A model generated the notes under the pieces. It saw only the letters and a program-made list of their open reading frames with translations, was not told the origin of the DNA and ran no database searches. From positions 40,951 to 104,950 of IMG/VR virus record IMGVR_UViG_3300002307_000034: a stretch of DNA of 64,000 nucleotides. One strand, given 5' to 3'. This DNA is from a virus. Shown here piece by piece: positions 14,501 through 39,852 of the stretch (position 1 is its first letter; each line of letters opens with the position of its first letter). The translations under genes were made by a program, and so were the position numbers.

Positions 14501-14544
14501 TGGAACTGAGCGTTAGCAACAATGTTTAAAGAAATATTATTCAA
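8527..14544 (-). CDS. Tail tape measure protein (TP901-type core)
   Basis: 2005 aa, Ala/Gln-rich helical; follows tail chaperones; GYVMGPGTSKSDSIPANLSNGEYVI motif; Trp repeats about every 11 aa near the C-terminus. Confidence 0.95.
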   Translation of the reverse strand: MNNISLNIVANAQFQQVYAEVAKLKEAMASMQKMSVGGPFTPQATASIKQAQSAFDSAVLSTRAFTIQHVAMTDSVTKFGKQLASGQLSLNNYYKIWRDSAKGTSKELDALATSQARLNRSIAVADPLRPGYAKLVTDINGVVTAEEKAIFYQKALNTALNDGAMKMINFGKNTQWMGRQLTVGLTMPMAMFGITASKTFLQVDQELTRLAKVYGTGLQQPTKEVLAGVRKDVTALGTELARSFGISVQETAAMAADLAATGQTGTGLINATREALRLATLGELDHAQAMKATVSLQNVYKLNTQGLTQAVDFLNAVENQTSTSLQDLVDAIPRVGPIVAQLGGSFKDTAAMMVAMKEAGVPAAQAANAIKSAIASLINPTKAAQDAFKQYGISVKNIASTTGGNPVKMIEALQVSMQKLDPLVKAQLIEKLFGKFQQARIQALIDNLGKAGSQTQTVFQLMGASSQDLAKLAAQELKTQTESASGRFKRMTETIKADLIPIGQTFLNSFSGLAGALDKIIKSFEKIGHMLGPIAGILGKVFGGGLVGMIVIGPILMLIGLFANLTGNLLKGANYIRMFRQGMDESLPTQNKFMAGIHNMRNFYENLDTGIIAARNQMDLMPESITSNAKAFDILSKSITELTTQFEALAVAQREAMGIGGGKGVQVRLPGFASGVVGLPGSGTKDSIPAMLAPGESVITANATKKYGSVLNAMNNGTLGGYAGGVVGLTEFSFRRSTEVSRLQQMFAEDTAMTDDIKTAVVSYLESFVKEGKVLKTSLQSVRDQVAALGLPGFEKTQLYTVGLSSRGGGASSLGARVPFDRSLGNRPYELESMRREQNAIAEAARDAGITNPDFYNASRAHLVNLPKVVRGPSGSFNPMLWAGMAQVPNQLANMMVGQTGAGNKDVYLKALQSAKEKELAATKGMANEEQQIAKIQAEYAALEGKVTKDLAATGKELITQNKVLTEILTWSLEDKDKLQGITKNFLQYAEYTKIGVQARANYYEELRQQGVTEKEIAAIATRNVEELTLGIQQMYESAISQGANTPQLMAAVIQQSKLLGLNITNATLAGWEEGIATAAQMRSPSKRAFAQGEQLVEGEVLGVASMLPEAELVGQQLAASTMLGFQQMSLPGMGGGSTFLGMPNMGTPGSQWSPDKGIGSVTTSANKMSGLMGRIKGFAANPMALNMGLMMGVPLAMQTIPNSVGGADLSGAKGTATSAAMTYGMLAMTSATAAFAAPAAAAVIGLKIFSNGMTNAANAAKQANGEIATSYANASNNINAYKMAADGVATHAITITQAKLTESLLNDKLAASQHKVIASTKALTDTYSGVISKAGNSLGGQINAGQVLGTAEGAKAGGSWGNVMKSVLFGGEANIFGKNLNSNNGAGRVLRMLDPFLLGTAGLGKVFPGLAGKGQQNYQAQAQGQLLTQLTKAPTTYEELVNPKYITGFQSAFAALTNVQKATLSSDGAFKSWNDTVGKSDPVLQSLNNTLKAHKVAMQDIIAINQMASAGFFLSQNAILGAGTAAGVKTATSGFAQYQNAIKSDTASAQAAVDAAQAAADAAHANAAKAAAGDTSTAGDKTAIKDYQDKIKLIEKEKTARDNLYNSQLRNIDAQQAQMNLEAEAVKARGSGDLIALAVQQQNQQIQKTKDAMAAAKVAADLSSQNKIDALQAKIDELQAKTSGPGKTISTATQDAALAAAQAALSAAQSGKGAGASKVQSDINIQLEKEYNDWLEKHKSLWQQIAQYVSDAWGWIQKIWDKLTKPVGQWFSTMWKDTKQLASDIWGFIDKIWNKIEKPVASWFSQMWKDIKTWASETWGFVSNIFNAISKPVSGWFTGIWDKISQVIKDIANSVTSVAGIIKSIASGPLGLLNSLFGGLISNLVKKLGLASGGYVMGPGTSKSDSIPANLSNGEYVIQADSVSKYGKSFLDAVNNKSFTVPQSALSAARSSAISDAVSSNNVRFGDNTINVYPPQGADANQVANLVITKINQSVQKQMTRRNV

Positions 14545-15266: not shown

Positions 15267-15995
15267 TTAGTATGTTGAGTAAACTCTATCAACGATAACG
15301 CCATATTCTGCACCGTCGTAATCATCCTTATCGTCTGGAAGACAACGGAACTGAACTGGGAATACAGTTGCAGAGTCACGCTTCAAAGCATGTGATGTTA
15401 CTTCAACTTGAACGATTCTACGTGCTACGTAAATACGTTCTTTCTTTGTTGTTGTAGATACATCTATTGGAGCTGCTTCTGAACCGATATTGCCTGGGGC
15501 ATTACCGATTGCAACTAGTGAACGCTCTACTGGAGCATCTCCTAGAGCACCTGCTGCTAAATTCAACTTTGCATTTGCTGCGTTTGCAGAAGCAGATGTT
15601 CCAACAGTAAGTGTTGAATTTGCTGTTCCAACAGAACCGCTGTATGTAACATACTGGTCTTGCTGGCCAAATACTATGTGAAGGTTTTCAAGAGTAGCTT
15701 CATTGAGTTCTGTCTTAAGAAGAACTTTAACTGTTTGCTTGAAAAGACGAGCTGCATCAAGAAGTTGATCAACCATAACTTCACCATATCCTGGTTCGTA
15801 TGATACTTCAAGTCCTTGACTTGTGTAACCTAAATCTCTCCATGCATCCTTACCATTAAGGTAACCTGCTGCCTTTTGAGTTCCCCATGCTAAGTCTCCA
15901 GAACCTGGAACTGTTGATGGACGATCTGCACCGTCAGCTGTACTGATAAAAAGTTGTGCTGCACCTACGATTATATTTTTTACATTTGCTGCCAT
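15267..15995 (-). CDS. Major tail (tube) protein
   Basis: NIIVGAA, DLGYTSQG and VDQL motifs; position before chaperones; strong SD and terminator. Confidence 0.85.
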   Translation of the reverse strand: MAANVKNIIVGAAQLFISTADGADRPSTVPGSGDLAWGTQKAAGYLNGKDAWRDLGYTSQGLEVSYEPGYGEVMVDQLLDAARLFKQTVKVLLKTELNEATLENLHIVFGQQDQYVTYSGSVGTANSTLTVGTSASANAANAKLNLAAGALGDAPVERSLVAIGNAPGNIGSEAAPIDVSTTTKKERIYVARRIVQVEVTSHALKRDSATVFPVQFRCLPDDKDDYDGAEYGVIVDRVYSTY

Positions 15996-16084
15996 TTATT
16001 TATTTCACCGCCTTATTTTTTATAAAATTGGGCTAAAATCTTTCCTCGTATGTAAATAGTATCATAGGGAAAGAATAATGCCAA

Positions 16085-16591
16085 TTAAAATCTTCCGTTT
16101 CCGTCAGTTTTTCTGGAATAGGAATAAGAAAGGGCAATTTGCCCAGTTTGAAAATCACCTTCAGAACTATAAGGTTCTGGAGAGAAAATATTATCTATAA
16201 GTATATGATGAAATTGAAATTCTGTATCTCCTGCAAGATATGTATTAACATCTTTTGCACTTTCATCATATCGTCTAAATAGGTCTTGAACTAAATTTGT
16301 TATTTTGTTTATTAGCTCATAATTTTGTGAAAATACTGCCAAGGTCATCATCTCGTCTGACATCCACCATTGGACTGGAATAGTCTTTACTTCAAAATCA
16401 TAAATTATATAGCTTTTACCTGGAAGCAAATTGTTAAATTCTGGTACTTGTTGAACAGGAATTATTGGCACAAGTGCTTCATCAAAACCATCTGCATAAT
16501 AATCATTTATATCTAGCAAGCCTGAATCTTGAATTTTTTGCCACAAATATGATCTAATATTTGCCGAAGCTAATTTATTATAATCTGTCAT
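16085..16591 (-). CDS. Putative tail terminator protein
   Basis: Synteny (directly upstream of tail tube gene) and size. Confidence 0.6.
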   Translation of the reverse strand: MTDYNKLASANIRSYLWQKIQDSGLLDINDYYADGFDEALVPIIPVQQVPEFNNLLPGKSYIIYDFEVKTIPVQWWMSDEMMTLAVFSQNYELINKITNLVQDLFRRYDESAKDVNTYLAGDTEFQFHHILIDNIFSPEPYSSEGDFQTGQIALSYSYSRKTDGNGRF

Positions 16592-21885: not shown

Positions 21886-23466
21886 CTATTTTACTTTTCT
21901 ACCTTCCCCTTTTCGGGCTCTGCCACTAACTGCTTCTTCTGGGGCAGCATTTCTTGTTTTATCTCTACTTCTAGATTGCATAGTTTGAGCTTTTATTTCT
22001 GCTGCGTCCCCTGCTGGATCAAAAACTTCATCTCCAGAATCTATAGGGTTAAGGCCCATTCTCATTCTTATTTCATTAGGTTTTACGACCTGAGTGGTTA
22101 GATAAATTTGATCAATTTGTGCTTGTGACAATTCATCAGTAAGAGTAAGTTCTTCAAATTTGAATGAAAACATGTCTGTAAATTCTTTGATAATTTTATT
22201 AATTTGAATTTCAAGAGAATCTTGAGCTGGACGAGTAACCTGCTCTTTAAAGATTTTATCATCTAATGGGCTAGGTGTTCCATGGCCTATTTTAGATAAT
22301 GGAGTTCTATGTGCAATTAAAATACGATCTCTATTTTCTATTGCATAATTTTGGAAAGAAGATTCTTGTTGTCCCGCCTCAACTGGCTTCATATCAAATT
22401 CTACACGAGAATTTTCTCCATCTGCTGGAAGTGGAATATAAAGAGTTCTGTGATTCTTGCCTTTTAAGCCGATCTGGAAAAATTCAAGAAGTTTACGTTC
22501 TGCATCAGCATTTAAACGAGCACCTTTAACTGTAATAATATATCTAGGCACTGCTTTATTCTCAAAATAATCCAAGTTATATCGTGAAGCAAATTCATCA
22601 CCAGCAACTGCATTCTTTGCGGATAAAATATCTGGAACTCCATAATATGTATTTGTTGGAGTATATTTTTTAAAATGAATAACTTCATTTGGACGAGGAT
22701 CTGTGCCTATTTGGTCCTGTGTGGTCTTATCGCCAAAGTTTCTAAAATATGTATATCGGTTGTATACAACCTGTACAAAACCGTCTCTATGGCGTCTTAT
22801 ACGCATTGTAATGGCAGGTATATGACCTATGTATCCAATTTCGCCAGAAGATGTTCTTCCAATTTCAAGATATCCATTTCCAGTTACCTCTAAATCTTTA
22901 TAAATTTTTTTTATAATTTCTTCAAAAGAATCATCTGAATTAAGACTTTCTATCTTATCAGTCATTAATACTTTTGCACGTGAAATCTTTCTACGTAATC
23001 TTTCTAATGATACGTTATCTTCAGATGCATCTTCTAATTTATCTAAAACTTTTTGTGTTTCTTGAAATTTATACCCCAGCCCGACGGTATTTGAAACTTT
23101 TGCATCAACTGCTGCGTGATGATATGGAGATACATCATAAAGTTGTGCTAAATATAAAACATTGTATGGTGGTTGAACAATTTGAAATAATGAATATCCA
23201 GTAAGATCAAGTGGATCAAGTTTTTTAGATTTTGCATCATCTAAACCTGTATATGCTTTTTGCAATTTTCTAGTTGCATTACGTTTAAAATTAGAATTTA
23301 AATTTTCAATTTTTAATAGATCTTCTGCTTTACCAAGAAATGGGTCATCAAAATCTGTTTCTTGTAATTCTCTTGGAACTGTGCCTAGAGAAGCACCACT
23401 AATCATAACTTCTTCAGAAGAAAAATCATCATTATCATCAGCTATGCCTGCACTATGCTTTATCAT
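21886..23466 (-). CDS. Portal protein
   Basis: TGNGYLEI, EVIHFK, YYGVP, YFENKAVP and PNEIR motifs. Confidence 0.92.
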   Translation of the reverse strand: MIKHSAGIADDNDDFSSEEVMISGASLGTVPRELQETDFDDPFLGKAEDLLKIENLNSNFKRNATRKLQKAYTGLDDAKSKKLDPLDLTGYSLFQIVQPPYNVLYLAQLYDVSPYHHAAVDAKVSNTVGLGYKFQETQKVLDKLEDASEDNVSLERLRRKISRAKVLMTDKIESLNSDDSFEEIIKKIYKDLEVTGNGYLEIGRTSSGEIGYIGHIPAITMRIRRHRDGFVQVVYNRYTYFRNFGDKTTQDQIGTDPRPNEVIHFKKYTPTNTYYGVPDILSAKNAVAGDEFASRYNLDYFENKAVPRYIITVKGARLNADAERKLLEFFQIGLKGKNHRTLYIPLPADGENSRVEFDMKPVEAGQQESSFQNYAIENRDRILIAHRTPLSKIGHGTPSPLDDKIFKEQVTRPAQDSLEIQINKIIKEFTDMFSFKFEELTLTDELSQAQIDQIYLTTQVVKPNEIRMRMGLNPIDSGDEVFDPAGDAAEIKAQTMQSRSRDKTRNAAPEEAVSGRARKGEGRKVK

Positions 23467-26697: not shown

Positions 26698-27414
26698 TTA
26701 TTGTGCAAGTCTTGAAAGTCTCCATGTCACTGCATTTGTTTCTGCATCTGAAACAGTAACTTGTAGTAAACAGTTAGATCCTGAAGATACTGCTGAAACA
26801 TAAACATCAGCCATAGCATTTCCTAATTCTGTAACACCATATTCTTCAGAAACAACATTTGTTCCATCTGTTGCAACTCTAATTGTTGAAACACGAATAT
26901 TTGAACCTTGTTTCATATTTAATAAATATTCAATTCCTATAAAAGTACTTGTAGCAATTGTATCAATTGATGTAGCTGATCCTGATCCTATTGTTCCAGA
27001 TGTTTGAGTATATCCAGTTCCTGTTCCGTTACCAGCACCAGTCGTTGGACTTTGCCATACAGGAACTCCTCCAGAAACTGCAAGAACATAACCATTTGAT
27101 CCAATACCCAATCTAGTTGCAGTTGCAACGGCTGAACCATTTGCACTAGAATAAATTATGTCGCCTTTATTTGTCATTGGCACAGCTAAAGCTGTCTGTG
27201 CATCAGTATAATTTTTAGTTGCAGCATGTGAAGATGCTGTAGGTTCGCCAATTGTAATCTTACCGTTAGTTTCTCTATACACAAGAGTATTTGCTGTAGC
27301 TGTAGATGTTGACTTAGTGTCAATTGTATTAGCTAAGTTATATATGTCGGACGGTACGTCAACTGGATCAGTTGACAATGGATATGGAAACCCTTTACTG
27401 GTTGATGAGCTCAT
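26698..27414 (-). CDS. Fibre/appendage protein
   Basis: HAATKNYTD, TNKGDII and RLGIGSNGYVL fibre motifs. Confidence 0.6.
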   Translation of the reverse strand: MSSSTSKGFPYPLSTDPVDVPSDIYNLANTIDTKSTSTATANTLVYRETNGKITIGEPTASSHAATKNYTDAQTALAVPMTNKGDIIYSSANGSAVATATRLGIGSNGYVLAVSGGVPVWQSPTTGAGNGTGTGYTQTSGTIGSGSATSIDTIATSTFIGIEYLLNMKQGSNIRVSTIRVATDGTNVVSEEYGVTELGNAMADVYVSAVSSGSNCLLQVTVSDAETNAVTWRLSRLAQ

Positions 27415-27454
27415 AGTTTATATTATAGCAAATAATACGCTTTTTGCGTATATG

Positions 27455-27784
27455 CTACTCTCTACCCCATTTAATCTTGTTCCAAGCACGTTCGTGTGCG
27501 TAATAAAGAACGATCTTAATTACAAGTTCAATACCAGAAGCAACAAACGCTAACTTACCATTATGGGTTAACTCATAAATAATAATAAAAGAGATTAAGT
27601 TACCAAAGAATCTCCAACTAATGGCTTTTAATAAAGAACGACCATGTGATACCCACATAATTGGTTTACGAGGGGTTTGATCAGAATAAAGTCTATCTTC
27701 TGCATCAGCAATTCCTTGTCCAAGATTTGCCAATATATTAAATACCCATTTGCTTGCGTTTTTCAGTTGCTGAAATAGCTTCAA
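27455..27784 (-). CDS. DUF2061-like small membrane protein
   Basis: RSLLKAISWR ... LYYAHERAWNKIKWG signature. Confidence 0.75.
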   Translation of the reverse strand: MKLFQQLKNASKWVFNILANLGQGIADAEDRLYSDQTPRKPIMWVSHGRSLLKAISWRFFGNLISFIIIYELTHNGKLAFVASGIELVIKIVLYYAHERAWNKIKWGRE

Positions 27785-28496
27785 TGTCTGCTCCTAACGA
27801 TACTTGTTCAATTTTATATCCTACATCCCGCCCATATACAATATTTGTAATATTTGGCATTTTAACTATCATTGCATTTTTCATAAATTCATCTTGAGCA
27901 ATATAACCTTTAACTTGATCAAATGTTAGTGGATCTTTAGGACTTGTATTGTATGTATTTCTAACACCAAGCATTACTTGACTTGTTCGCTTACCTGCTT
28001 CTTCATATAAGGCATGATGACCTTCATGCCAAGGTTGGTAACGTCCAAGCATTAAAGTTGTTGGTTCTGACCAATCGTGTAAATTAAATTTTTGAATAAT
28101 ATATGTTGCCTTTTGATATTCATCCATCTCATGTGAATTAAACATGACATCAAAAAATTCTGGTTTTTCAAATATTCTATTTGTATTTTCAAAACGCCCT
28201 TCAGATATAGTGTTCATCCAAATAATTATATCTGCTTTACCAAAAGCTTTTCTAGTCTCTTCGGTTGGGCATACAAAATCAGCAATAACAATTTGATTTT
28301 GATTATGAAGCAATCTTGATAAAGCACCCATTCTGCGACCTTGCTCTATTCTATCTTCTACAGTAAAACCCAAATCTTTATTTAAATCAGATCTAACTTC
28401 GTCTGCATTTAAAAGTGTTCCGTTTACTCTGTCTGCAAGGACGGTAGCAATAGTTGTCTTTCCACTACCTGGCAAACCTATAATTTGTATAATCAT
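27738..28496 (-). CDS. cysC: Adenylylsulfate kinase fused to a HIGH-motif nucleotidyltransferase domain
   Basis: GLPGSGKTT, ADEVR, DLGFTVEDR and FEKPE (APS kinase); C-terminal GRYQPWHEGH. Confidence 0.8.
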   Translation of the reverse strand: MIIQIIGLPGSGKTTIATVLADRVNGTLLNADEVRSDLNKDLGFTVEDRIEQGRRMGALSRLLHNQNQIVIADFVCPTEETRKAFGKADIIIWMNTISEGRFENTNRIFEKPEFFDVMFNSHEMDEYQKATYIIQKFNLHDWSEPTTLMLGRYQPWHEGHHALYEEAGKRTSQVMLGVRNTYNTSPKDPLTFDQVKGYIAQDEFMKNAMIVKMPNITNIVYGRDVGYKIEQVSLGADIEAISATEKRKQMGI

Positions 28497-28499
28497 TTA

Positions 28500-29177
28500 T
28501 TATCCATTCCAAAACAACTCTTTATTATTATATATTTCTAAATCTTTTTGATTTAAACTTTCAATAAATTTTATTTCTTTTTTACTTAACATTTTATACA
28601 ATATTTTAGATGAATCATTTATGTTATGATCATTTAATATGTATTGACTTTTATTATACACCTTTTTTAATGATAAGTCTTTGTGTATTTTATATTTAAG
28701 TTTTTCACATTTAACATTTGTTAAACTATCATTTCTTATTAAAATATTTATTCTTTTTAACCTATCAATAAGTAATTTATCATTGATTTTTATTGTATTA
28801 AATTCTGGAGTATCTTTTATATCTAAAGTTGGGCCGAGTGGGGCGGAGTCGTATAAAAAACTTTTTGATTGAAAATTAGATATATATGTATTATTTTTTT
28901 CTAACCATTTCATCATGTTTAAAACATTAATTTCTAAATTATTATTAAAATGTTTATGATTCCAAGCATAGTGACTTACAGTTCTTTCAATTGGATTTCT
29001 GATACTGGATATTACATATGTTTTATCATCAACCTTTGACCAATAAGCGTGTTGATCTTGTTTTATTTTTATTTTAGCATCTTTTAATCCAGGTGTTAAA
29101 TAATCTATAATTTCAGATCTAATGAAATGACCAGCTGTTTTAGGTATATGTAAAAAATAAAAACTTTCATAAATCAT
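28500..29177 (-). CDS. Sulfotransferase (Sulfotransfer_2-like)
   Basis: FLHIPKTAG (5'-PSB) and IRNPIERTVSHY (3'-PB). Confidence 0.8.
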   Translation of the reverse strand: MIYESFYFLHIPKTAGHFIRSEIIDYLTPGLKDAKIKIKQDQHAYWSKVDDKTYVISSIRNPIERTVSHYAWNHKHFNNNLEINVLNMMKWLEKNNTYISNFQSKSFLYDSAPLGPTLDIKDTPEFNTIKINDKLLIDRLKRINILIRNDSLTNVKCEKLKYKIHKDLSLKKVYNKSQYILNDHNINDSSKILYKMLSKKEIKFIESLNQKDLEIYNNKELFWNG

Positions 29178-29862
29178 TTAAATCAATTACCATTTTTTCT
29201 TGTTCCTGCCATCCTATGTAATCTTTATTCCAATTTAAACTTGCAGTTAAATGAATAAATGCATCATTATAATATGATGCTTTATTATTTCCTAAATATT
29301 TTATACTATCTACTGAATATATTTTTATATCATTTTTTTTATTATTATCTAAATAATTATTAATTCCTTTAGTCCAGGCCATCACTCCAGTAATTCTATC
29401 AACAAATCTTATATCTTTATAATTTGGTTCTTTAAAATTATCTTCTACGCAATCAATAACACTTTTAAGAAGTTTATGTTTTGGCTTTGATGCAAATGAT
29501 ATTTGATTATAAAAATAATCGTCATCGTCTTTCGAAATAATTAAATTATAGCCAGGTACGACCCACTCTTCAATTTTTTTATTACAAATTGTATCTATAT
29601 CTACATAAACACCTCCATACGTATAAACAATTAAATACCTCCAAATATCACTTTTCATAACTCCAACTGGACAACTATCAAATATGTTTAACCATTTTTT
29701 ACCAAATTCACGAAAAATAAAAAATCTTATTTGTTCATCATCCATATAAATATAATTATATTCTGGATTTAAATATTGCCAAGTTTGAGTTTTTTCTTTA
29801 ATATACGTTGGCAATTTTTCAAAAGGATCTTTATAAGTTTGCCATATTATTTTAGGAATCAT
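29167..29862 (-). CDS. Glycosyltransferase, DXD/OCH1-like (GT32-type)
   Basis: IPKIIWQT, SDIWRY, YGGVYVDID. Confidence 0.9.
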   Translation of the reverse strand: MIPKIIWQTYKDPFEKLPTYIKEKTQTWQYLNPEYNYIYMDDEQIRFFIFREFGKKWLNIFDSCPVGVMKSDIWRYLIVYTYGGVYVDIDTICNKKIEEWVVPGYNLIISKDDDDYFYNQISFASKPKHKLLKSVIDCVEDNFKEPNYKDIRFVDRITGVMAWTKGINNYLDNNKKNDIKIYSVDSIKYLGNNKASYYNDAFIHLTASLNWNKDYIGWQEQEKMVIDLNDL

Positions 29863-30512
29863 ATAGATTTTTCTAAAATTTCATAATCGTCTTTAAAATG
29901 ATTTTCTATTAAAGATTGCGTGTATTTGCTTAAAATAATGCCTTCGTCTTTAAAAGTTTTCATTGTTATAGGAAGTTTTATATTTTTATCAAAACCAATT
30001 TTTTCTAAAATTATAGGCCATGTTTTTTGAATATTTTTAATATTATACAAATCTATTGTTTTATCATAATTAAGTCTTTTTATTTGTGGATTTACTGGTT
30101 CTATATTCATAAATAAAATATCTTGTATAAAACCGTCTAGCCCTTTATTTATTAGATGAGAATATGATTCTTTTTCTATATCATTTGCTGATTTTTTTGT
30201 ATAATAATAAAAAGAAATCATTAATTCTTTTGGATCACGAATTGTAGAAAATTTATAAAAGTTATTCCACTTTTCATTACCAATTAATTTTTTTATTTTT
30301 TCTGCTGATGAATGTTTAGATAATCCTTTTTCTTGAATATTTTTCCAACCAAAATATTTAGCGTATAAATTTTCTAATTCCATGCCGAAAGACAAGCCTC
30401 CAAAAATATAATCATCCCATTCTAAATATGGAGTTAAGGCTTCTTCTATAGAAGTTCCTCCAGTTTTATGTAAATGTATATATATAAATTTTTTAGAATT
30501 ACTAATTATCAT
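29859..30512 (-). CDS. Sulfotransferase (Sulfotransfer_2-like)
   Basis: FIYIHLHKTGGTSIE and IRDPKELMISFYYY. Confidence 0.8.
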   Translation of the reverse strand: MIISNSKKFIYIHLHKTGGTSIEEALTPYLEWDDYIFGGLSFGMELENLYAKYFGWKNIQEKGLSKHSSAEKIKKLIGNEKWNNFYKFSTIRDPKELMISFYYYTKKSANDIEKESYSHLINKGLDGFIQDILFMNIEPVNPQIKRLNYDKTIDLYNIKNIQKTWPIILEKIGFDKNIKLPITMKTFKDEGIILSKYTQSLIENHFKDDYEILEKSI

Positions 30513-31011
30513 TTTTTTCCTTAATTTTTAAAAGCAAATAATCTGCATTTGCTTTTATATGTTTAAATTTACCCTGTTCAAATTCAAAATCTTTTCTTTT
30601 TTTCATAAATGGACAAAATATTCTTGCTTGTTTCATACATTCAATATGAAAAGGCATTATATCTGAAAACACTCTGGGACCTTTTTCATCATTTATTAAT
30701 CCATCTTTATAACATCTTCCGTCTTCTGTTTTTTCTGAATTCCAACTTATGCAAATTTCTTCTGGTAAAAAAGATAAACCACAATAACCGCAAATATTAT
30801 CTGGTTTTACCTTTTTTTCATTTTTTGTTATAACATTAAACATAGCATTATTTTTTAATATAGGTTTTGATTGCCATGGAATTGGAATATTTTTATTTAT
30901 AAAATAATCTGCTTCTTTTCTAAATTTTTCTGGAACATGAACCATAGGTCTTGGTAAACCTAAAATTTCATCTTGTTCATCCCAATTTGAAAAATCTTTA
31001 ATTATTTTCAT
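30502..31011 (-). CDS. Hypothetical Cys/His protein
   Basis: CGYC and HIEC...CPF; possible Zn site. Confidence 0.55.
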   Translation of the reverse strand: MKIIKDFSNWDEQDEILGLPRPMVHVPEKFRKEADYFINKNIPIPWQSKPILKNNAMFNVITKNEKKVKPDNICGYCGLSFLPEEICISWNSEKTEDGRCYKDGLINDEKGPRVFSDIMPFHIECMKQARIFCPFMKKRKDFEFEQGKFKHIKANADYLLLKIKEKNDN

Positions 31012-31709
31012 TAGTCAAATTTAGGTTTTTTCCAAATATTATCACGATACCATCCCCAAGATGAAAATCCACTTTTTTTATGATTTAAAAATGCTTCTTC
31101 TAAAACATTTTTATCGTAAACAGATTCCCAATTTTCTGTTTTAAATGGAATAATTTGAGCAATTGGAGTGCCTGCAGGAATTAATCCTTCAAAAGTTTTA
31201 CTAAAAAATACTGGAACATTTCCACTTGGAACGGAAAAATTACCATCAATAAAACCACTTAGTGTAATAAAAGGTAGATCAAATCTATTTAACGGATGTG
31301 TTACAAGTGCAGAATATCCTTTTGGAATATTAAAACAATGTTTTGTGTTCCATGCAAAATGAAGTTTTGAAAATCCTTCTGGCACTGGAAGTAAAATATT
31401 ATGGTTATCATCTCTTAATGCAAGAAAATTTACATCCGGATCTCTCCATGTAATTACAGGACCACCTTCGGTTTGCTCAACCATAATATCAACTGGAAGT
31501 GGCAACATGTATCCACTAGTTAGTGAACTTAAAAATGGAGCACAAGCTTTAAATGTAACTTCCGCTGGAAGCCTTTTAGGAAATTCCCCATTTTTAAATT
31601 TTGGCGTGTCCATATACCACCTTGGAATATTATTTTTTGCTGGAGATATGTTTGGAAAAACATTGTCCTCAGCTGCATGCCTAAAAATATTTTTTTTATT
31701 TTTTATCAT
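31011..31709 (-). CDS. DUF6065-like / dUTPase-fold-like protein, paralog 1
   Basis: PRWY, KAC.PF, GY, IPAGTPIAQIIPFK. Confidence 0.55.
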   Translation of the reverse strand: MIKNKKNIFRHAAEDNVFPNISPAKNNIPRWYMDTPKFKNGEFPKRLPAEVTFKACAPFLSSLTSGYMLPLPVDIMVEQTEGGPVITWRDPDVNFLALRDDNHNILLPVPEGFSKLHFAWNTKHCFNIPKGYSALVTHPLNRFDLPFITLSGFIDGNFSVPSGNVPVFFSKTFEGLIPAGTPIAQIIPFKTENWESVYDKNVLEEAFLNHKKSGFSSWGWYRDNIWKKPKFD

Positions 31710-32392
31710 TTATACTCTTTTCTATGCCAAAACAATTGTTTATATCTGTTATAAAATTTACTTGTTAATAATCTTTCTGTCTTTTCATAATCATATTTAT
31801 CATTAATAATTTGATGAGACCAAGATTCTCTTTTAATTGGAATTACTTGAGCCATTGGTGTACCTGCTGGGATAATCCCCTCAAAGTTTACATCATTTAA
31901 AACAAATGGAAAATTAACTGGAGAGTTATAAGTATCTGTGTCAACAATTGCTTCTAAAATAGTAAAATATTTATTATTACCATGTACTGGTGGAATTATT
32001 AATACAGAATATCCTGGAGGAGTTTTAATTCCCCATGGATTTATCCATTTAGGATATGGATGCTGATTCATATTTGGGTGATAGGGAGCTTGCTCTATAC
32101 CATGATGTTGAATATTTTCTATTTGACTAGTTAAATATAAAATTTCACCATTATCATTTTTTTTGATATATAAATCACAATATGTTGAAATTATATATCC
32201 TGCTGTTAAAACATCAAATACTGGTTGACATTTTTTTATAGTACTATTTACTGTACCTTGATATCCTATATCCCTTTTTCCACCCACATAAGATTGAGTT
32301 TTTTTATACCATTCTGGAATATTTTCTGAAGCTGGAATAGGGCGATAAATACCATCAACACTATTTGTGTTGATAAATTTTATATTATTCAT
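31706..32392 (-). CDS. DUF6065-like / dUTPase-fold-like protein, paralog 2
   Basis: PEWY, KKC.PV, GY, IPAGTPMAQVIPIK. Confidence 0.55.
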   Translation of the reverse strand: MNNIKFINTNSVDGIYRPIPASENIPEWYKKTQSYVGGKRDIGYQGTVNSTIKKCQPVFDVLTAGYIISTYCDLYIKKNDNGEILYLTSQIENIQHHGIEQAPYHPNMNQHPYPKWINPWGIKTPPGYSVLIIPPVHGNNKYFTILEAIVDTDTYNSPVNFPFVLNDVNFEGIIPAGTPMAQVIPIKRESWSHQIINDKYDYEKTERLLTSKFYNRYKQLFWHRKEYK

Positions 32393-32936: not shown

Positions 32937-33479
32937 TTAATAATATTCTATAACCTGATAGGTGCAAGGACCTGTTACTGTTAGTGTTGTTGAATTTGTT
33001 AATACTGCACCATATGCTGCAGCAGTTAAAGCAGTTGTTCCTCCAGTTAAACTTGTTGCATTTAATCCTACGTTTGCACCATTTGTATTCATAGCATTCA
33101 TATAAATATTAGAGCTAACATTTGCCTGAATATATCCTGAACTTGTTTGATAATAAATTTGATATCTTGCATTATAGTTACCAGTTGTGTAATAATATCC
33201 ATATCCTTGGTTCGCTAAAAGTTGTCCAGCAACAAGTGGGTTATTTGATATAACGTTTGTTCCTGAAGAAGCTGAAAAAGAAATTCCTGAAGTAGATCCA
33301 TTTGCAGCATTCATAGTTCCTGTTGCTGCTACTGTTCCCGCCGAACCTGTTGAAACTGAGTGAACAACAGTTTTTGCAGTATTAACTGCTGAAATTGTAA
33401 TTGTACCTGCTCCAGATGCTGATCCTGTTTGCAAAGATTTAATTACTGATGCTGTATTTGGATATATTGCGACGCCCAT
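32937..33479 (-). CDS. Short fibre/tip protein
   Basis: IKSLQTG...TISAVNTAK start and YQVIEYY end. Confidence 0.55.
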   Translation of the reverse strand: MGVAIYPNTASVIKSLQTGSASGAGTITISAVNTAKTVVHSVSTGSAGTVAATGTMNAANGSTSGISFSASSGTNVISNNPLVAGQLLANQGYGYYYTTGNYNARYQIYYQTSSGYIQANVSSNIYMNAMNTNGANVGLNATSLTGGTTALTAAAYGAVLTNSTTLTVTGPCTYQVIEYY

Positions 33480-33480
33480 A

Positions 33481-33798
33481 TTATACTATTTCAACCCCCG
33501 AAATGTGAAAGTTTACAGATGTTGCAGATGCTCCACCTGTAATGGTTTTAGGTGTTGCATTTGCTGGAAGTACTTGCTTTAAATCAAATAAAGCTTGTCC
33601 ATTAGCAGCAATTGTTGCTGTAGTAGCAAAAGCTACACCATCAAAAGCTAGAGTGAACGTCTGTGCTGAACCTGAAGTATTTGTCACAACAATATTTGTT
33701 ATAATTGATTGAGTTCCTGTTGTTGGAACGGTGTAAAGTGTTGTAGTAGTAGTTGTAGAAGCTGCACCTCTATACATTTGTACTGCTGTTGTTGCCAT
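33481..33798 (-). CDS. Small structural (fibre-associated) protein
   Basis: TLYTVP...NIVVTN...ISGVEI pattern. Confidence 0.55.
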   Translation of the reverse strand: MATTAVQMYRGAASTTTTTTLYTVPTTGTQSIITNIVVTNTSGSAQTFTLAFDGVAFATTATIAANGQALFDLKQVLPANATPKTITGGASATSVNFHISGVEIV

Positions 33799-34000: not shown

Positions 34001-37000
34001 TTAATATGCCTGCATAATATGCATAATTTTTGTTTCATTTGCAAGCTTTGCAAATGTTATTGAACCATCTGCTACTGAAGATGAAGGGGTTGCCCATTGA
34101 ACTCCCGTCCCAGTTGATTGCAAGAATTGACCTGAAGTTCCTGCAGAACCACCTGCAGTTACAGTTCCTGTCATTGTTTGGTTATTTAATGTTAGTCCCG
34201 CAATTGTAGTTACAGTTGCACCTGATGAAATTGAAGTTGATCCAAGTGTTGGTGCTGTGTATCCTGAAGGAGGATTTACCCATTGAACACCTGTTCCAGT
34301 TGATGAAAGTAGTTGTCCTGAAGTTCCTGCAGAGCTATTTGCAGTTAATGTACCACTTAATGTTGCTCCAGATAATGTGAGTCCTGCAATTGTAGTTACA
34401 GTTGCTCCAGATGCAATTGATGTTGAACCAATAGTTGGAGCAGAATATCCTGATACTGAAGCCCATGAAAGGGTTCCCGCTCCATCAGTTGTAAGGTATT
34501 TACCAGAATTAGATGTTTGAGATGGAAGTAAGTTAGCAGCAGCTGTTGAAGCTGTTGTAGCACCTGTACCACCATTTGCAATTGCAATTGCTGTACCATT
34601 CCAAACACCTGTTGCAATTGTTCCAACTGATGTAAGTGATGAACCTACTACTGAAGAGTTAAGTGTTGTACCTGTTAATGTTTCCGCTGCTGCGGTAATA
34701 GTTTTTGTATCTCCAAGTGATATTGAAGTTCCATTAATTGTAATACTTGAATTTGCAAGGCTTGTATTACCAATATTAGATAAAGTATTTGTAGAACCTG
34801 AAATTGATTTATTTGTCAATGTATCTGTAGTTGCTCTGCCTACTAATGTATCTGTAGATGTAGGAAGTGTTAATGTTCCTGTATTAGTAATTTGAGCAAT
34901 TACTGGTGTTGTTAATGTCAATCCCGCCAAAGTTGAGGCAGTCCCTCCAAGTGATACAGAAGTTGAGCCAATTGTTACTGAGTTGTTTGCTAGCTGAGAA
35001 TTTGAAACTCCAGCAGATTTAATTGCTACGTTGCCAGATGTTACTGTAAATGATGCTGAGTCAAAAGATGCAATACCTTTATTAGAAGTACTTGCAACAT
35101 TTTGAGCACCTGTCTGATAACCAGTAACACGACCATATGAATCTACAGTAATTCCAGATACGATGCCGTTTGCAAGATTCCCGCCCGTTGTATTTGACTG
35201 AGAAACTGTAGCAAGATCAACGCTATCTGCAGTAACATTAAGTGTTGATGAAACAACATCTACTGTGTTGCCGGTTCTAAGAAGACCGTTACCTGCTACG
35301 AATGATGAAGCACCTGAGAACTGAGTCCATGTAATATTATCTGTGCCAATAAGTACTAGGCCATCTGTTCCTGAACCTGTCATTGTAGCAACAAATGATT
35401 GATTTAAATTATTTGGACCATAAAGTACATATACTGCATCTCCTGCAGAAACTTCATCAATTGTGTGGTTGTCTGAATCTGTTGCACGAGTAAGAACCCA
35501 TTTTGTTGAAGAAGACCCCTTGTCTGTTACAACATAAATACCATTTTGCTTTGCATCTGCTTGATTTTTAATAAGTACACGGTTGCCATTATTTACATTT
35601 ATAGTATCAATTGCAAGTGCTGCATTTGCTGTAGCAGTTAATGTTGCTCCAATTCCTAAACCGCCATTAGCATCAGTTGTTCCGTCTGCATATGTAGATG
35701 AAGGTAAAACTCCAGATGTTGCAGCCACGACTGCTGCATGCCAGTTCATTCCTGCAGAAATATTATCTACATAAGCTTTTGAAGCGGCATGCCCTGCAGA
35801 TGTAGGAGTTGTATTTACTGTAATTAAATTAGCTGTAAAATTACCTGATGCATCACGAGCAACAATTGTTGAAGCTGTATTTGCATCTGTAGCGGTGGTT
35901 GCAGAATTTGCAACTTTGCCACTAGTTGTAATAGTTGCAAGTTTTGTATCTGCTATTCCAGCTGAAGGTGATATATCTGCATTTACAATTGTTCCGTCTA
36001 CTATGTCTGCGGAAGTAATAGAAGAAGAAAGATTTAATTTGCTATATGCTATTTCTGCTGAATCATTAATATCAGCATTTACAATTGTGTTATCTAGAAT
36101 CATAGTAGAAGTAACAGAACCTGTATCTGTTGTTTTTACTACATTAGCGGTTGCATTAGATATTGCAGTGTTTCTGTTAGAAACTTCTGTTGCTATAACT
36201 GAATCAGCATATCCTTCAGATGTTGATATTGCTTGAGACTTAGCGGTTGCTATTGCAGAATTACGGTTAGTAACTTCTGTGCTAATTGCTGAATCTGTGT
36301 AAGATTCTGAAGCGGTAATTGCTTCTGATTTTTTAGTATCAGCATATGATTTTGTAGCAAGTGCTGCGGTATCTGAAATACCATGAACATTTGTTGTTGC
36401 TGATGTATGTGATGATAGAGTAGAGCTTGATGCTTTTGCATCTAATTGTGTTTGAATAGAAGATGTTACTCCATCAAGATATCCAATTTCTGTATTAGAT
36501 ACATTTGTAACTCTTGTTTGAACAACATCTGTATTTATAGAAAAAGATGAGCCAGATAGGTTTAAACCATTTCCAGCAATATATGTACCGCTACCCGCTG
36601 ATTGTTGAAAATTAATATTATCTGTACCAATTACAATTCCATATGCAGGAAATTCTGATGATCCCAAAGAATCCATAAACCAAGTTGTTTTTGAAAGAGT
36701 ATTTCCTTCTCCAACATAAATTGTGCGACCACCGATTAATTGTCCTTGAAAAGAATTATCATAATCTGAAGTGCGTGTTGCAACCCATGGGTTATTTAAA
36801 TCTCCAGATGTTGTAATGTAATATATGCCATTTTGCTTTGCATCTGCTTGATCTTTGATTAAAATTCTATCTAATAAATCAACTTCTACGCCATCAACAG
36901 TTAACGTACCATTTGAACTGCCTGTTAAAGTTCCGCCAATACCTTTGCCATATTCGCCTGAATCACCATCATTATTTATTGCATCAATTGGTTCTGTAGT

Positions 37001-37597
37001 AGCAAAATTAACAAATACTGAATGATAAACATTTTCAATAATTTGATCTACATAGCCTTTATTTGTTGCATCTGTATCTATATCTGGATCAGATAAATTT
37101 AATATTTTTTTGCTATTTGCATCTAAATTTTCGCTTAAGCTTGTTGATGATCCTAGTGTTTTATTAGTTAGTGTCTGAGTTCCATTTGTAGAAACAACAT
37201 TACCAGCACCATTTGTGCCAATATTAAGATTTTCTATTGATGTGTCTGTGTAACCTTCTGCAGTTGTAATTGCATTGCTAATATCTGTATTAGTAGAAGA
37301 TTGAAATCCTGAAAGATCTGCAGCATCTGCTGCTGTATAGCCAAGTGCTGTATTTACATCTGTATCCGTAAGGGTAACTTCACCTTGACGGGAATTAAAA
37401 GATGTAACAGCTACGGAAGATATCCCTGAAGGAAGTACTGAAGCATAATCTAATGTACGCCAAATATTAGTACCATTACCAATTTTAAATTTGCCTGTAT
37501 CGGTTTCAAATCCTATTTCGCCAGAAGATAGCTGGGGGTTTACATCGTACCAATTACTGGCTGTGTCTCTTCTTATTTGAATTCTTGTACTTGACAT
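34001..37597 (-). CDS. Long fibre protein with Mtd_N-like N-terminus
   Basis: RIQIRRDTASNW..NP.LSSGEIGFETDTGKFKIGNG; internal fibre repeats. Confidence 0.8.
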   Translation of the reverse strand: MSSTRIQIRRDTASNWYDVNPQLSSGEIGFETDTGKFKIGNGTNIWRTLDYASVLPSGISSVAVTSFNSRQGEVTLTDTDVNTALGYTAADAADLSGFQSSTNTDISNAITTAEGYTDTSIENLNIGTNGAGNVVSTNGTQTLTNKTLGSSTSLSENLDANSKKILNLSDPDIDTDATNKGYVDQIIENVYHSVFVNFATTEPIDAINNDGDSGEYGKGIGGTLTGSSNGTLTVDGVEVDLLDRILIKDQADAKQNGIYYITTSGDLNNPWVATRTSDYDNSFQGQLIGGRTIYVGEGNTLSKTTWFMDSLGSSEFPAYGIVIGTDNINFQQSAGSGTYIAGNGLNLSGSSFSINTDVVQTRVTNVSNTEIGYLDGVTSSIQTQLDAKASSSTLSSHTSATTNVHGISDTAALATKSYADTKKSEAITASESYTDSAISTEVTNRNSAIATAKSQAISTSEGYADSVIATEVSNRNTAISNATANVVKTTDTGSVTSTMILDNTIVNADINDSAEIAYSKLNLSSSITSADIVDGTIVNADISPSAGIADTKLATITTSGKVANSATTATDANTASTIVARDASGNFTANLITVNTTPTSAGHAASKAYVDNISAGMNWHAAVVAATSGVLPSSTYADGTTDANGGLGIGATLTATANAALAIDTINVNNGNRVLIKNQADAKQNGIYVVTDKGSSSTKWVLTRATDSDNHTIDEVSAGDAVYVLYGPNNLNQSFVATMTGSGTDGLVLIGTDNITWTQFSGASSFVAGNGLLRTGNTVDVVSSTLNVTADSVDLATVSQSNTTGGNLANGIVSGITVDSYGRVTGYQTGAQNVASTSNKGIASFDSASFTVTSGNVAIKSAGVSNSQLANNSVTIGSTSVSLGGTASTLAGLTLTTPVIAQITNTGTLTLPTSTDTLVGRATTDTLTNKSISGSTNTLSNIGNTSLANSSITINGTSISLGDTKTITAAAETLTGTTLNSSVVGSSLTSVGTIATGVWNGTAIAIANGGTGATTASTAAANLLPSQTSNSGKYLTTDGAGTLSWASVSGYSAPTIGSTSIASGATVTTIAGLTLSGATLSGTLTANSSAGTSGQLLSSTGTGVQWVNPPSGYTAPTLGSTSISSGATVTTIAGLTLNNQTMTGTVTAGGSAGTSGQFLQSTGTGVQWATPSSSVADGSITFAKLANETKIMHIMQAY
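34090..34455. repeat. Imperfect 186-bp (62-aa) tandem duplication at fibre C-terminus
   Basis: CAATTGTAGTTACAGTTGC at 34201 and 34387; CTGAAGTTCCTGCAGA at 34132 and 34318. Confidence 0.8.
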
Positions 37598-37641
37598 TAA
37601 TCCTCCGTTAAAATTATATCATTTTTATAAATAAAAAACTA

Positions 37642-37860
37642 TTATGCTGCGCCACCATCAAGTCCAAAAAGATAAGAATCGCTTGCTTTTCCGCCATCAA
37701 TATTTATAACATTATTATTAGTTCCCCATTTTTGCCAACCAGTACCGTCATGATATCTATAAGCTTTATCATTATCATTGTAATAAAAATCACCTTTTGT
37801 GCCAGATGGGTCCGATGCTAGTACTGGTGGTTTTAATGGGACTTTAAATACTTTTGACAT
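37642..37860 (-). CDS. Small fibre-associated protein
   Basis: GDFYYN...YHDGTGW and IDGG motifs. Confidence 0.55.
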   Translation of the reverse strand: MSKVFKVPLKPPVLASDPSGTKGDFYYNDNDKAYRYHDGTGWQKWGTNNNVINIDGGKASDSYLFGLDGGAA

Positions 37861-37879
37861 TTTACTCCATTTATTTAGT

Positions 37880-37908
37880 TAAGGAAGGACGTTTAACGTC
37901 CTTCCTTA
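37880..37908. terminator. Inverted repeat, probable terminator
   Basis: TAAGGAAGGACGTT-T-AACGTCCTTCCTTA. Confidence 0.7.
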
Positions 37909-37926
37909 GACAATTTTTATTTTTAT

Positions 37927-39852
37927 TTAGCCTATTACAACTACGTTGTAAGTTTCTCCAGTTACTGGAGCGGATGCAAATGATACTGTAATTATGTTTG
38001 TTGATGTACGCTTTACATCAATTTCAATATCATTGTATTGATCTACTCCTGCAGATGTTTGATATACACGAACCATTACATCTCTTGATCCAAGAGCATG
38101 TGTGAATGAAAATGTATCATCTACGCTGTTTCCAGTAATGGAACTTGAATATTTGCGAGTAACTGTTGTGTAATCTGCATTTTTTGCAAAATCATCAGAT
38201 ACAAGTTGAGATTCAAGTGTTGATAAACTAAGGTCAAGCGTTGCGCCTGAAGGATTTGTAATATATGTTGATCCTGATACTACATCAGAAGCTTTAAAAC
38301 TAATTGAAGCATTTGAAATAGTAATTCCAGTTCCCGCTGTATATTCGCCAGCAGCTGAGAATTGTGTCCAAGTGTAACCTGTACCTGTAGCAATATATCC
38401 AGTCTTGCCTTGAGTTCCATATTCAATAAATACAAAGTCACCAACTGCTGGAGTTGTATGATCTGTTGCACGAGAAAGTGAACCGTCGTTTGCGGTTACA
38501 TAAATGCCATTTTCAGATGAGGTAGTTTGATTCTTAACAAGAATACGATCCCCAGAATTCCAAGCATTGAACCCATCAAGACTGTCAGTGTCAGCATTCC
38601 ATGTTCCAAGGTTAATATTTATGGTTGAAGCAGCAGTTACTGACTCTTTAACATTAAGACCTTGTGCAATACTATGAATATCAGAAATTGTTGCAATTTC
38701 ATTGCCTGTTGCTGCAGAGCCAAGATATGCTGTACCATCTGCATTAAGAACAATGTCTCCACCATTTTGTGATGTAATTGTTACATCATCATGTGCCAAA
38801 ATGCGAAGGCTAGCAGTATGTGCAGTAATTTCAAAATCATTATTTGTAGGATTGATAACAATTTCGCCTTCATTTGCAACAGTTATTTCATCTGTAAAGT
38901 ATAATGGACCTTGAATTGTTTTGTTTGAAAGTGTTTGTATATCTGAAGTTCCTACTACATAACCAGTTACACCATGTACACCAGATGATAATCCTGCGTG
39001 TGTTGAAAGATCTGTAGCAACATAGCCCGCTTCTGTTGCTGCTGTGCCAGCTGCGTCATACCAAGTGTCTACTGTAGTTCTATCTACAGTTATTGCACCA
39101 GTAGACGAATCATAAGAAATTCCTGAAGAACCACTTATTGCATTACGTGCACGAGAATCTGTAAAATAAACATTAACTGGTGATACACCTTCTGAAATAT
39201 CATCAGTATAAAGTGTTAAACTTGACCCTAGGCTTACATCACTACCATTAATAGTTACTTTTGAATTTGTAAGTGAAGTATTATCAATATTTGAAATAGT
39301 ATTATCTGATCCAGATATTGTTTTATTAGTAAGAGTTTGTGTTCCAGTTTCTGTAACATAACCTGTAAGATCACCTGTTATATCACCAAATGTTGCAAGT
39401 CTATTGTCTGAAGTTACTGAACCCTTATAAACATCTCCATCTGCTGAAAGAATAATATCTCCGCTGGATGTTGTAAGAGTTATATTATTGTTAGCACTTA
39501 ATGCTATTCCAGTAGTGGAACCAAGTTCTGTATTACCGTTACCATCAACATCAAGTCCATGATCTGTTGACCCGCCAACATACAATGCACCACCTAGTGT
39601 TACATTTTCTGCGAGTGTTAATTGTTGATCTGTTACTACAAAATTACCATCAACTGATCCAATATATTGAACACCTACTGGAGACCAGTGCGTTGTTCCT
39701 GTTCCTGTTGAATAGTAGAATGTACTATCTCCTGTGTTAAAGTATAGTTGTCCTGCTGCAAGGGCTGATGGGGCCGAGGGAGCAGAATGGATAACTGCAT
39801 TAAGTAGCTGATTACCCTTTAAATTAATATTTGTTAAAAATGTTTTTGCCAT
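37927..39852 (-). CDS. Fibre/decoration protein
   Basis: GQLYFNT, TQTLTNKT repeats, RILVKNQT..ENGIY, C-terminal THALG module. Confidence 0.7.
   Translation of the reverse strand: MAKTFLTNINLKGNQLLNAVIHSAPSAPSALAAGQLYFNTGDSTFYYSTGTGTTHWSPVGVQYIGSVDGNFVVTDQQLTLAENVTLGGALYVGGSTDHGLDVDGNGNTELGSTTGIALSANNNITLTTSSGDIILSADGDVYKGSVTSDNRLATFGDITGDLTGYVTETGTQTLTNKTISGSDNTISNIDNTSLTNSKVTINGSDVSLGSSLTLYTDDISEGVSPVNVYFTDSRARNAISGSSGISYDSSTGAITVDRTTVDTWYDAAGTAATEAGYVATDLSTHAGLSSGVHGVTGYVVGTSDIQTLSNKTIQGPLYFTDEITVANEGEIVINPTNNDFEITAHTASLRILAHDDVTITSQNGGDIVLNADGTAYLGSAATGNEIATISDIHSIAQGLNVKESVTAASTININLGTWNADTDSLDGFNAWNSGDRILVKNQTTSSENGIYVTANDGSLSRATDHTTPAVGDFVFIEYGTQGKTGYIATGTGYTWTQFSAAGEYTAGTGITISNASISFKASDVVSGSTYITNPSGATLDLSLSTLESQLVSDDFAKNADYTTVTRKYSSSITGNSVDDTFSFTHALGSRDVMVRVYQTSAGVDQYNDIEIDVKRTSTNIITVSFASAPVTGETYNVVVIG

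Follow-up and report, generated by a model that had tools for sequence, protein, structure and literature searches.

A trimmed APS kinase fused to a small HxGH nucleotidyltransferase domain: a candidate minimal PAPS synthase in a predicted phage sulfation cassette

How a phage that encodes sulfotransferases could be supplied with the sulfate donor of these enzymes is the question raised by five genes of the virus record IMGVR_UViG_3300002307_000034. The window analysed here is the 64,000-nucleotide stretch covering bases 40951-104950 of this 104,950-bp record, which is estimated to be 97% complete. Five minus-strand open reading frames (ORFs) lie in a row from position 30512 down to 27455, encoding a sulfotransferase (ST1), a DXD glycosyltransferase (GT), a second sulfotransferase (ST2), a kinase-nucleotidyltransferase fusion (KNT), in which an APS kinase is joined to a small nucleotidyltransferase (NT) domain with a HIGH-type motif, and a DUF2061 membrane protein. 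A previous sequence-only reading had described this gene order, and all five genes are found where it had placed them. Neighbouring genes of the module overlap by 4-11 nt or are separated by 3-nt gaps (the overlap of KNT and DUF2061 is 47 nt if the latter starts at TTG 27784). No Sat, CysD or CysH is found in the phage genome. To our knowledge, the conversion of adenosine 5'-phosphosulfate (APS) into 3'-phosphoadenosine 5'-phosphosulfate (PAPS) is the sole job of APS kinase, and ATP sulfurylase, which makes APS, is known in two forms, Sat and CysDN. It is proposed here, with a probability of about 0.6 and from sequence comparisons, that the five genes are a phage-borne sulfation cassette in which the small NT domain would make APS, the kinase would make PAPS and the sulfotransferases would sulfate a sugar.

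KNT (27738-28496, minus strand) is a protein of 252 residues, with Pfam matches to APS_kinase (residues 2-84) and CTP_transf_like (residues 149-187). Its residues 1-125 (28122..28496, minus strand) form a trimmed APS-kinase domain without the lid helix. The PF01583 match of 65.9 bits is well above the cut-off of 21.1 and covers only profile positions 4-91 of 152; the second half of APS kinase, with the lid helix, is missing or replaced, and the cut-off of the NCBIfam equivalog for full-length CysC (TIGR00455) is missed (62.8 versus 138.7 bits). The P-loop reads GLPGSGKTT, and in a PDB search this half matches APS kinases (2yvu at 5e-11). The AlphaFold2 model of KNT, built with 53 diverse homologues, has a predicted local distance difference test score (pLDDT) of 96.7. 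When the first ~140 residues of this model are searched with Foldseek, APS kinases are the best matches (4e-9 to 2e-7). In VIA-align superpositions the kinase half and CysC of Mycobacterium tuberculosis give a Z-score of 18.0 (root-mean-square deviation 1.6 over 127 residues), which is higher than the Z-scores of gluconate kinase (14.8), shikimate kinase (13.1), nicotinamide riboside kinase (10.1) and dephospho-CoA kinases (9.7-11.0). Among the 53 homologues, Lys13 and Arg35 are invariant, and Asp32, Phe44 and Arg49 are at least 90% conserved. Asp32, Arg35, Phe44 and Arg49 line up with the LDGDxxR...LGF...DR residues of the solved APS kinases, which we take to be the positions of the catalytic aspartate and of the APS-binding arginines and phenylalanine. 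Clearly, the kinase half of KNT is of the APS-kinase type.

Residues 140-252 of KNT (27741..28079, minus strand) form an HxGH nucleotidyltransferase domain of 110 residues, which the motifs and the gene linkage discussed below point to as a candidate ATP sulfurylase. The CTP_transf_like match (20 bits, below the cut-off of 21) contains the sequence GRYQPWHEGH, in which seven positions (G, R, Q, P, H, G and H) show little or no variation across the homologues. The motifs conserved throughout the family are GRxQPxHxGH, VR, PNI, YGRDVGY and ISATxxR; Arg179, after strand 2, is near-invariant, and Gly222, Arg223, Gly226 and Arg247 (of ISATxxR) are invariant. The catalytic HxGH and ISxTxxR motifs are intact and are kept across phages and bacteria.

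Gene linkage connects this domain with APS kinase. Two groups of phage homologues are compared here, a close set of 80 viral KNT relatives (53-76% identity) and a distant set of 83 additional phage loci for which the NT domain served as the seed; letter-number names (L, P and G series) designate loci, proteins and genomes from the homologue searches. The kinase-NT fusion is present at all 80 close loci, and at 78 of the 83 distant loci an APS-kinase domain lies within 100 nt of the NT domain, three of the five exceptions being at contig ends. The way in which the two are arranged varies. In the fusion P0152 the order is reversed, the NT domain preceding a canonical full-length CysC, P0164 is the NT domain alone (121 residues), and at L232 the NT domain and the trimmed kinase are encoded by two overlapping genes, also in reverse order. 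DUF2061 takes part in fusions as well, with a canonical CysC in P0270 and P0271, and with the NT domain at L223 (192 residues, 3767-4345), where no APS kinase is present within 4 kb. That the arrangements vary around one constant partner argues for the NT domain working with APS kinase; the L223 phage may make only APS, or may use a kinase encoded elsewhere. Sulfotransferases, searched for by iterated hidden Markov models, are located within 6 kb of KNT at 19 of the 80 close loci and within 4 kb at 21 of the 83 distant ones, and a sulfotransferase family is the only Pfam match for 8 of 10 such ORFs that were checked. As to the surroundings of the variant loci, the L223 fusion lies between ORFs of 356 and 571 residues that resemble, by eye only, Mre11/Rad50-type nuclease genes, and the split genes of L232 (2821-5876; NT 119 residues, kinase 148 residues) stand amid four ORFs of ~175-200 residues that look, by eye, like small 2-oxoglutarate/Fe oxygenases.

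Homologues of KNT are also widespread in bacteria, mainly in Alphaproteobacteria (43-49% identity), and KNT homologues are labelled adenylyl-sulfate kinase by NCBI and IMG. The entry for the fusion in PHROGs (phrog_10255) says only 'kinase'. The bacterial neighbourhoods vary, with GT2 and Wzt-type exporters recurring; when the 135 genes lying no more than two positions away from bacterial KNT are sorted by Pfam family, Sulfotransfer_3 comes first, with 6 genes, and ABC transporters come second, with 5.

The phyletic distribution was studied with a class sample of 301 Alphaproteobacteria genomes, searched for the NT profile, CysD-like proteins, Sat and the APS-kinase domain. There are six strong NT matches, all of them KNT fusions. 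CysD-like proteins are present in 168 genomes, Sat in 35 and the APS-kinase domain in 185, and 180 of these 185 APS-kinase genomes also carry CysD-like or Sat. Three of the five that do not are KNT genomes, one of them having a sulfotransferase beside KNT (Fisher p = 1.9e-4; p = 1e-4 if the unpublished genome G212, one of the three KNT genomes with CysD in this sample, is left out). Neither CysD-like nor Sat is found in 16 of 50 further KNT genomes; for APS-kinase genomes that have no KNT, the count is 2 of 179 (p = 3e-10), a comparison that is weakened by the different sampling of the two sets and by the many metagenome-assembled genomes of unknown completeness among them. Five KNT genomes without CysD-like or Sat also have no PAPS_reduct member at all (neither CysH nor CysD), and because of this KNT cannot serve assimilation in these five. 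In genome G140, one of these five, which has no known APS source or reductase, a Sulfotransfer_3 gene starts ~500 nt downstream of KNT. The fusions, the linkage and the orphan APS-kinase genomes favour the view, already taken in the sequence-only reading, that KNT is a minimal bifunctional PAPS synthase, as predicted from comparative data.

The other two of the five exceptions in the class sample are G170 and G125. G170 was rejected as an orphan, as its CysNC gene is cut by the contig end. G125 is a real orphan, having a canonical CysC, no CysD or Sat that could be found and no NT domain nearby; in this genome (L174:1408-2980) the 185-residue CysC overlaps the end of a 336-residue ORF that is pyruvate-kinase-like by eye only. 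About 90 of the 301 Alphaproteobacteria genomes match the CysD equivalog model TIGR02039 only at positions 1-205, at ~205-235 bits (below its cut-off) and in frames of 265-340 residues. These partial matches, almost always accompanied by an APS kinase, are probably a CysD variant that is under-scored by the equivalog model.

Several observations weigh against the proposed sulfation cassette, including the sequence affinities of the NT domain that are described further below. Most KNT phage loci have no sulfotransferase nearby. Xylella phage Sano encodes a KNT homologue (L001, record 15406-16143; 41% identity; annotated 'kinase') among its early genes, and no ST-like or DUF2061-like ORF is found in 16.7 kb of this phage. 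The GT family is widespread in phages, mostly without KNT (74 of 80 GT loci), and GT was rejected as a general partner of KNT, as the two co-occur at 6 of 80 loci. A canonical sulfurylase is kept in 34 of the 50 KNT genomes (33 CysD-like, 1 Sat). Also rejected is KNT as a general replacement of sulfurylase, as CysD-like proteins are missing in 34% of the KNT genomes versus 44% of the class sample; the informative phyletic test is the narrower one, of APS kinase without any sulfurylase. In phage Sano the KNT gene is near those of a MazG-like pyrophosphatase and a 'cysteine dioxygenase'.

It could be argued that KNT is only an APS kinase, using APS from a host sulfurylase, and that the small HxGH domain serves in regulation, nucleotide sensing or oligomerisation. 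Fungal ATP sulfurylase, in which a degenerate APS-kinase-like domain is allosteric, would be the mirror image of such an arrangement. The 34 bacterial genomes that have both KNT and a canonical sulfurylase fit this explanation, as do the size of the NT domain, which is far smaller than any characterised sulfurylase, and its substrate, which is left unassigned by fold and sequence. Nevertheless, this explanation is considered unlikely. The HxGH and ISxTxxR motifs, Arg179 and Arg223 are kept across phages and bacteria, which is not expected in a decayed domain. The 16 of 50 KNT genomes, and the three of five orphan APS-kinase genomes, have neither CysD nor Sat as a source of APS. Moreover, the NT domain also occurs as a separate gene, and fused to DUF2061 where there is no kinase within 4 kb.

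The fold of the NT domain is predicted with confidence, as the AlphaFold2 model of this domain alone (pLDDT 95.7) has the HxGH nucleotidyltransferase fold. The substrate class does not follow from the structure prediction and profile check suggested in the sequence-only reading. In VIA-align superpositions of the model, nicotinamide mononucleotide (NMN) adenylyltransferase (NMNAT; 1f9a, Z 9.0), phosphopantetheine adenylyltransferase (PPAT; 8.9), NadM (8.7) and Thermus ATP sulfurylase (1v47; 8.1, over 111 residues) are tied, and with Foldseek the isolated domain has no match at E<=0.001. The model-based fold search cannot separate NMNAT, PPAT and ATP sulfurylase. The earlier assignment of this domain to the Sat type is not supported, and the NT domain was rejected as a member of the Sat family: PF01747 (Sat) has no match at E<=1 in the phage genome, the NT profile and 12 Sat catalytic domains, compared by hhalign, align with a probability of 4% over 23 columns around HxxH only, and a PDB profile search with the NT profile finds no Sat chain at E<=10. 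HEGH, YGRDVGY and ISATEKR follow one another in KNT in the order of the Sat motifs HxxH, GRD and SGTxxR, an order that makes equivalent GRD positions no more than possible. At the level of sequence, a relationship of the NT domain with Sat can be detected only in the HxxH stretch. Closest to the domain in sequence are the NadM-type and archaeal NMNATs (NT-only profile, 5e-10 for 2qjt and 4e-7 for 1f9a; full profile, 5.5e-12).

These relationships suggest another explanation, in which the small domain is a true adenylyltransferase of NMN or of another phospho-substrate, and the product of KNT is another 3'-phosphorylated adenylyl compound (compare NadR and the pair of PPAT and dephospho-CoA kinase), for example for the replenishment of NAD during infection. 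Besides the closeness by sequence, the GRxQPxHxGH motif is of the NadM type, and NMNAT and PPAT are the top fold matches; such an activity would be compatible with both sequence and fold. Yet the similarity with the NMNATs is confined to the ATP-binding stretch of ~70 residues at the start of the domain (positions 6-76 of the 113 in the NT profile), and the NMN-binding second half of these enzymes has no counterpart in the NT domain. The scores fall far short of the NCBIfam NMNAT cut-offs (NF002243, 24.4 versus 127 bits; TIGR01527, 17.7 versus 181). In addition, the kinase half is specifically of the APS-kinase type, as seen from its Z-score of 18 compared with about 10 for the kinases of nicotinamide riboside and dephospho-CoA, a fusion of the NT domain with a complete, canonical CysC also exists, and the neighbourhood contains sulfotransferases instead of genes for NAD or CoA. 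Taken together, this explanation is quite improbable.

The proposed PAPS synthase activity of KNT can be compared with that of known enzymes. The PAPS synthases and Sat-CysC fusions (human PAPSS1, 1x6v; Aquifex aeolicus Sat/APS kinase, 2gks; CysN/CysC) also have an APS kinase and a domain of the nucleotidyltransferase superfamily in one polypeptide. The kinase half of KNT superimposes on the PAPS synthase and Sat-CysC structures with Z-scores of 16.7-17.1, and the chemistry proposed for KNT, from sulfate to APS to PAPS, would be the same. KNT differs from these enzymes in its length (252 versus about 550-630 residues), in the missing lid helix of its kinase, in the variable order of the fusion and in its second domain of ~110 residues, which is outside the Sat (PF01747) and CysD/CysN families and for which the activity is predicted. 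The NMNATs (Methanocaldococcus jannaschii 1f9a; Francisella NadM-Nudix 2qjt) share with the NT domain the GRxQPxHxGH motif, the NP motif that follows it and the final SxTxxR arginine. Unlike in NadM, the region of the NMN pocket is replaced in the NT domain by a short PNI...YGRDVGY segment, and the partners are APS kinase and sulfotransferases. A dedicated PAPS supply would not be without precedent, as rhizobial NodPQ, an accessory system for sulfate activation encoded together with the carbohydrate sulfotransferase NodH, provides a second such supply for the sulfation of Nod factors, alongside the housekeeping CysDN. Like the NodPQ system, most bacterial KNT genomes keep CysD, and the KNT neighbourhoods are of the polysaccharide type (GT2, Wzt ABC transporter, sulfotransferase). 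NodPQ are ordinary CysD and CysN-CysC homologues, whereas KNT uses an unrelated small domain.

The possible users of PAPS are the two sulfotransferases. ST1 (29859..30512, minus strand) is a carbohydrate-type sulfotransferase of 217 residues (Sulfotransfer_2, PF03567, 26.2 bits, cut-off 22). It is the sole PF03567 match in the phage genome, it also matches phrog_3347 ('galactose-3-O-sulfotransferase') at 1.8e-9, and its PAPS motifs (5'-PSB and 3'-PB) are HKTGGTS and IRDPKELMISFY. ST2 (28500..29177, minus strand; 225 residues) is a divergent sulfotransferase, with a match to phrog_3347 at 3.5e-4 and none in Pfam or NCBIfam. The alignment of ST2 with ST1 falls exactly on the two PAPS-binding motifs (PKTAGH and IRNPIERTVSHY), and the ESM Atlas places ST2 with Sulfotransfer_2 clusters (21 of 30 feature matches, score 0.95, TM 0.67-0.73). 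ST1 is a member of Sulfotransfer_2 by its Pfam score, and ST2 is one at the level of motifs and structure only. Between them, GT (29167..29862, minus strand) is a DXD glycosyltransferase of 231 residues, of the Gly_transf_sug or capsular-synthesis-like type (PF04488, 62.7 bits, cut-off 23; Caps_synth PF05704, 24.8 bits), and its DXD motif is DID, within YGGVYVDIDT. The order ST-GT-KNT-DUF2061 is repeated at L276, where the GT is only 47% identical.

The DUF2061 protein (27455..27784, minus strand) is a two-helix membrane protein, with a PF09834 match of 57.1 bits (cut-off 23.1) over the full 52-position model. Its start is uncertain: TTG 27784 gives the long overlap with KNT mentioned above, and the in-frame alternatives TTG 27733 and ATG 27658 are the likelier ones, the latter giving a protein of 67 residues, near the median of 71 residues of its relatives. 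Among the 80 close viral relatives, DUF2061 follows KNT at 73 loci by BLAST and at 77 by HMM. It was rejected as a universal partner of KNT, as it is found at none of 80 bacterial KNT loci and is also missing in phage Sano. DUF2061 probably tethers KNT at the membrane in this phage lineage and is dispensable elsewhere. In a literature search, neither a sulfurylase assignment for the NT domain nor an account of the KNT-DUF2061 pair came up, and DUF2061 itself yielded nothing useful.

In the proposed mechanism, the NT half of KNT would adenylylate sulfate (ATP and sulfate giving APS and pyrophosphate), and the fused lid-less APS-kinase half would phosphorylate the 3'-OH of APS, thereby trapping APS as PAPS. 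DUF2061 would keep this activity on the cytoplasmic side of the membrane and, with PAPS as the donor, ST1 and ST2 would sulfate a sugar that GT attaches or extends. The sulfurylase activity of the NT domain, the tether role of DUF2061 and the glycan acceptor are each inferred, from comparative genomics and predicted structures.

The acceptor may be sought in the surroundings of the module. As the sequence-only reading had claimed, the module lies among the virion genes. The genes of the portal, protease, major head protein, a tape measure protein of 2005 residues and a minor tail protein are on the same strand, downstream of the module, and a 1198-residue ORF upstream has PHROG matches to tail-fibre and head-decoration families. 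That the module is flanked by fibre genes, as had also been claimed, is shown only in part. Its neighbours are rich in serine and threonine: the Ser and Thr content is 26-30% in the flanking ORFs (26698-27414, 32937-33798 and 34001-39852), compared with the typical 11-16%. The 238- and 945-residue neighbours, however, have no informative match in Pfam or PHROGs. The Ser/Thr-rich flanking ORFs include a 105-residue protein with six consecutive threonines. A precedent is provided by mycobacteriophages, in which glycosyltransferases encoded among the structural genes glycosylate virions (mentioned in PMC11256854). The present phage, a probable actinophage as well, resembles that system in having a glycosyltransferase gene in the virion block, beside genes of Ser/Thr-rich structural-type proteins; the mention in that source describes no sulfation. 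By analogy, and from the position of the module and its Ser/Thr-rich neighbours, a virion glycan would be an attractive acceptor, and a polymer of the host envelope, or another acceptor, is equally compatible with the data.

The host of this phage is probably an actinobacterium, judging from its portal and from the genes of its relatives. The portal (portal and tape measure region: 21886-23466 and 8527-14544) shares 51-53% identity with its counterparts in Streptomyces siphophages of 120-134 kb, and WhiB and DUF7455 are encoded by close relatives of the KNT locus. With a GC content of ~34%, the phage has a much higher AT content than these Streptomyces siphophage relatives. In mycobacteria the reduced intermediate of assimilation is APS, not PAPS, which, with an actinobacterial host being inferred from portal and WhiB, does not favour an assimilatory role of a PAPS-forming enzyme here.

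Such a role has been assigned to phage cysC and cysH genes in surveys of lake viruses, which report high transcription of cysC (PMC10914622; bioRxiv 10.1101/655167). The phage 'cysC' genes of lake viromes are like KNT in their annotation as adenylyl-sulfate kinase, in the similar type of habitat and in their whiB-bearing actinophage relatives; these papers do not mention a fused nucleotidyltransferase, DUF2061 or sulfotransferases, and their genes may or may not correspond to KNT. That KNT is an auxiliary metabolic cysC that boosts assimilatory sulfate reduction of the host during infection, the adjoining transferases being unrelated, is the least probable explanation, as the phage has no gene of the PAPS/APS reductase family, two sulfotransferase genes overlap or abut in the same gene string, the five bacterial KNT genomes noted above have no PAPS_reduct member and, if the host resembles them, the cultured acI lake Actinobacteria wholly lack the assimilatory sulfate pathway (PMC5301498). 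That the phage has two sulfotransferases adjoining KNT but no Sat, CysD or CysH agrees with the suggestion of the sequence-only reading that PAPS would be made for sulfotransferases rather than for assimilation.

If the sulfation cassette is what it is proposed to be, a third, miniature sulfurylase would change the annotation of sulfate activation, and APS kinases without an apparent source of APS would be explained. A one-gene route to PAPS of 252 residues might also find use in enzymatic sulfation. An auxiliary metabolic gene that is abundant, highly transcribed and read as one of 'sulfur assimilation' would join the class of surface- or virion-modifying genes, and the possibility of sulfated glycans on phage particles or infected cells would be raised. 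The chances are about even that this wider picture applies in full, namely that the NMNAT-like domain of ~110 residues represents a third class of ATP sulfurylase, with an evolutionary origin of its own, that KNT is the smallest known PAPS synthase, that sulfation and not sulfur assimilation is the purpose of many 'cysC' genes in phages of lakes and soils and in some bacteria, and that a sulfated glycan is made here by genes of the virion block, possibly on the particle.

Three further genes upstream, in the same operon-like string (30502..32392, minus strand; overlaps of 1-11 nt), are possible members of the module: a Cys-rich ORF of 169 residues and two DUF6065-like paralogues of 232 and 228 residues. 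The Cys-rich ORF (30502-31011), which overlaps ST1 by 11 nt, has the motifs CGYCG ... HIECM ... CPF and no match in Pfam, PHROGs or NCBIfam; homologues are present at 5 of 80 KNT-related loci. The tandem paralogues (31011-32392) match phrog_7084 at 1e-27 and 1.7e-56, and the 228-residue ORF is grouped with DUF6065-like phage clusters in the ESM Atlas. DUF6065-like relatives occur near KNT at 36 of 80 loci, at a median distance of 81 nt upstream, often directly upstream and often in two copies. A link of these paralogues with the sulfation module is possible.

The GC content of ST1, GT, ST2 and the Cys-rich ORF (28500-31011) is 22-25%, the lowest in the window, compared with 33-35% in KNT and DUF2061 and 29-45% in the structural genes. 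Because of this low GC content, these four genes look like a later insertion beside an older KNT-DUF2061 pair, which would be the old core of the module. A blastn search of the module against 50,697 phage records gives no match. Just 3' of the DUF2061 stop, a consensus scan identifies a weak terminator-like hairpin (27435..27451, minus strand), with a 6-bp stem that includes three G-C pairs and a T-rich tail, a resemblance that is in itself no evidence of function.

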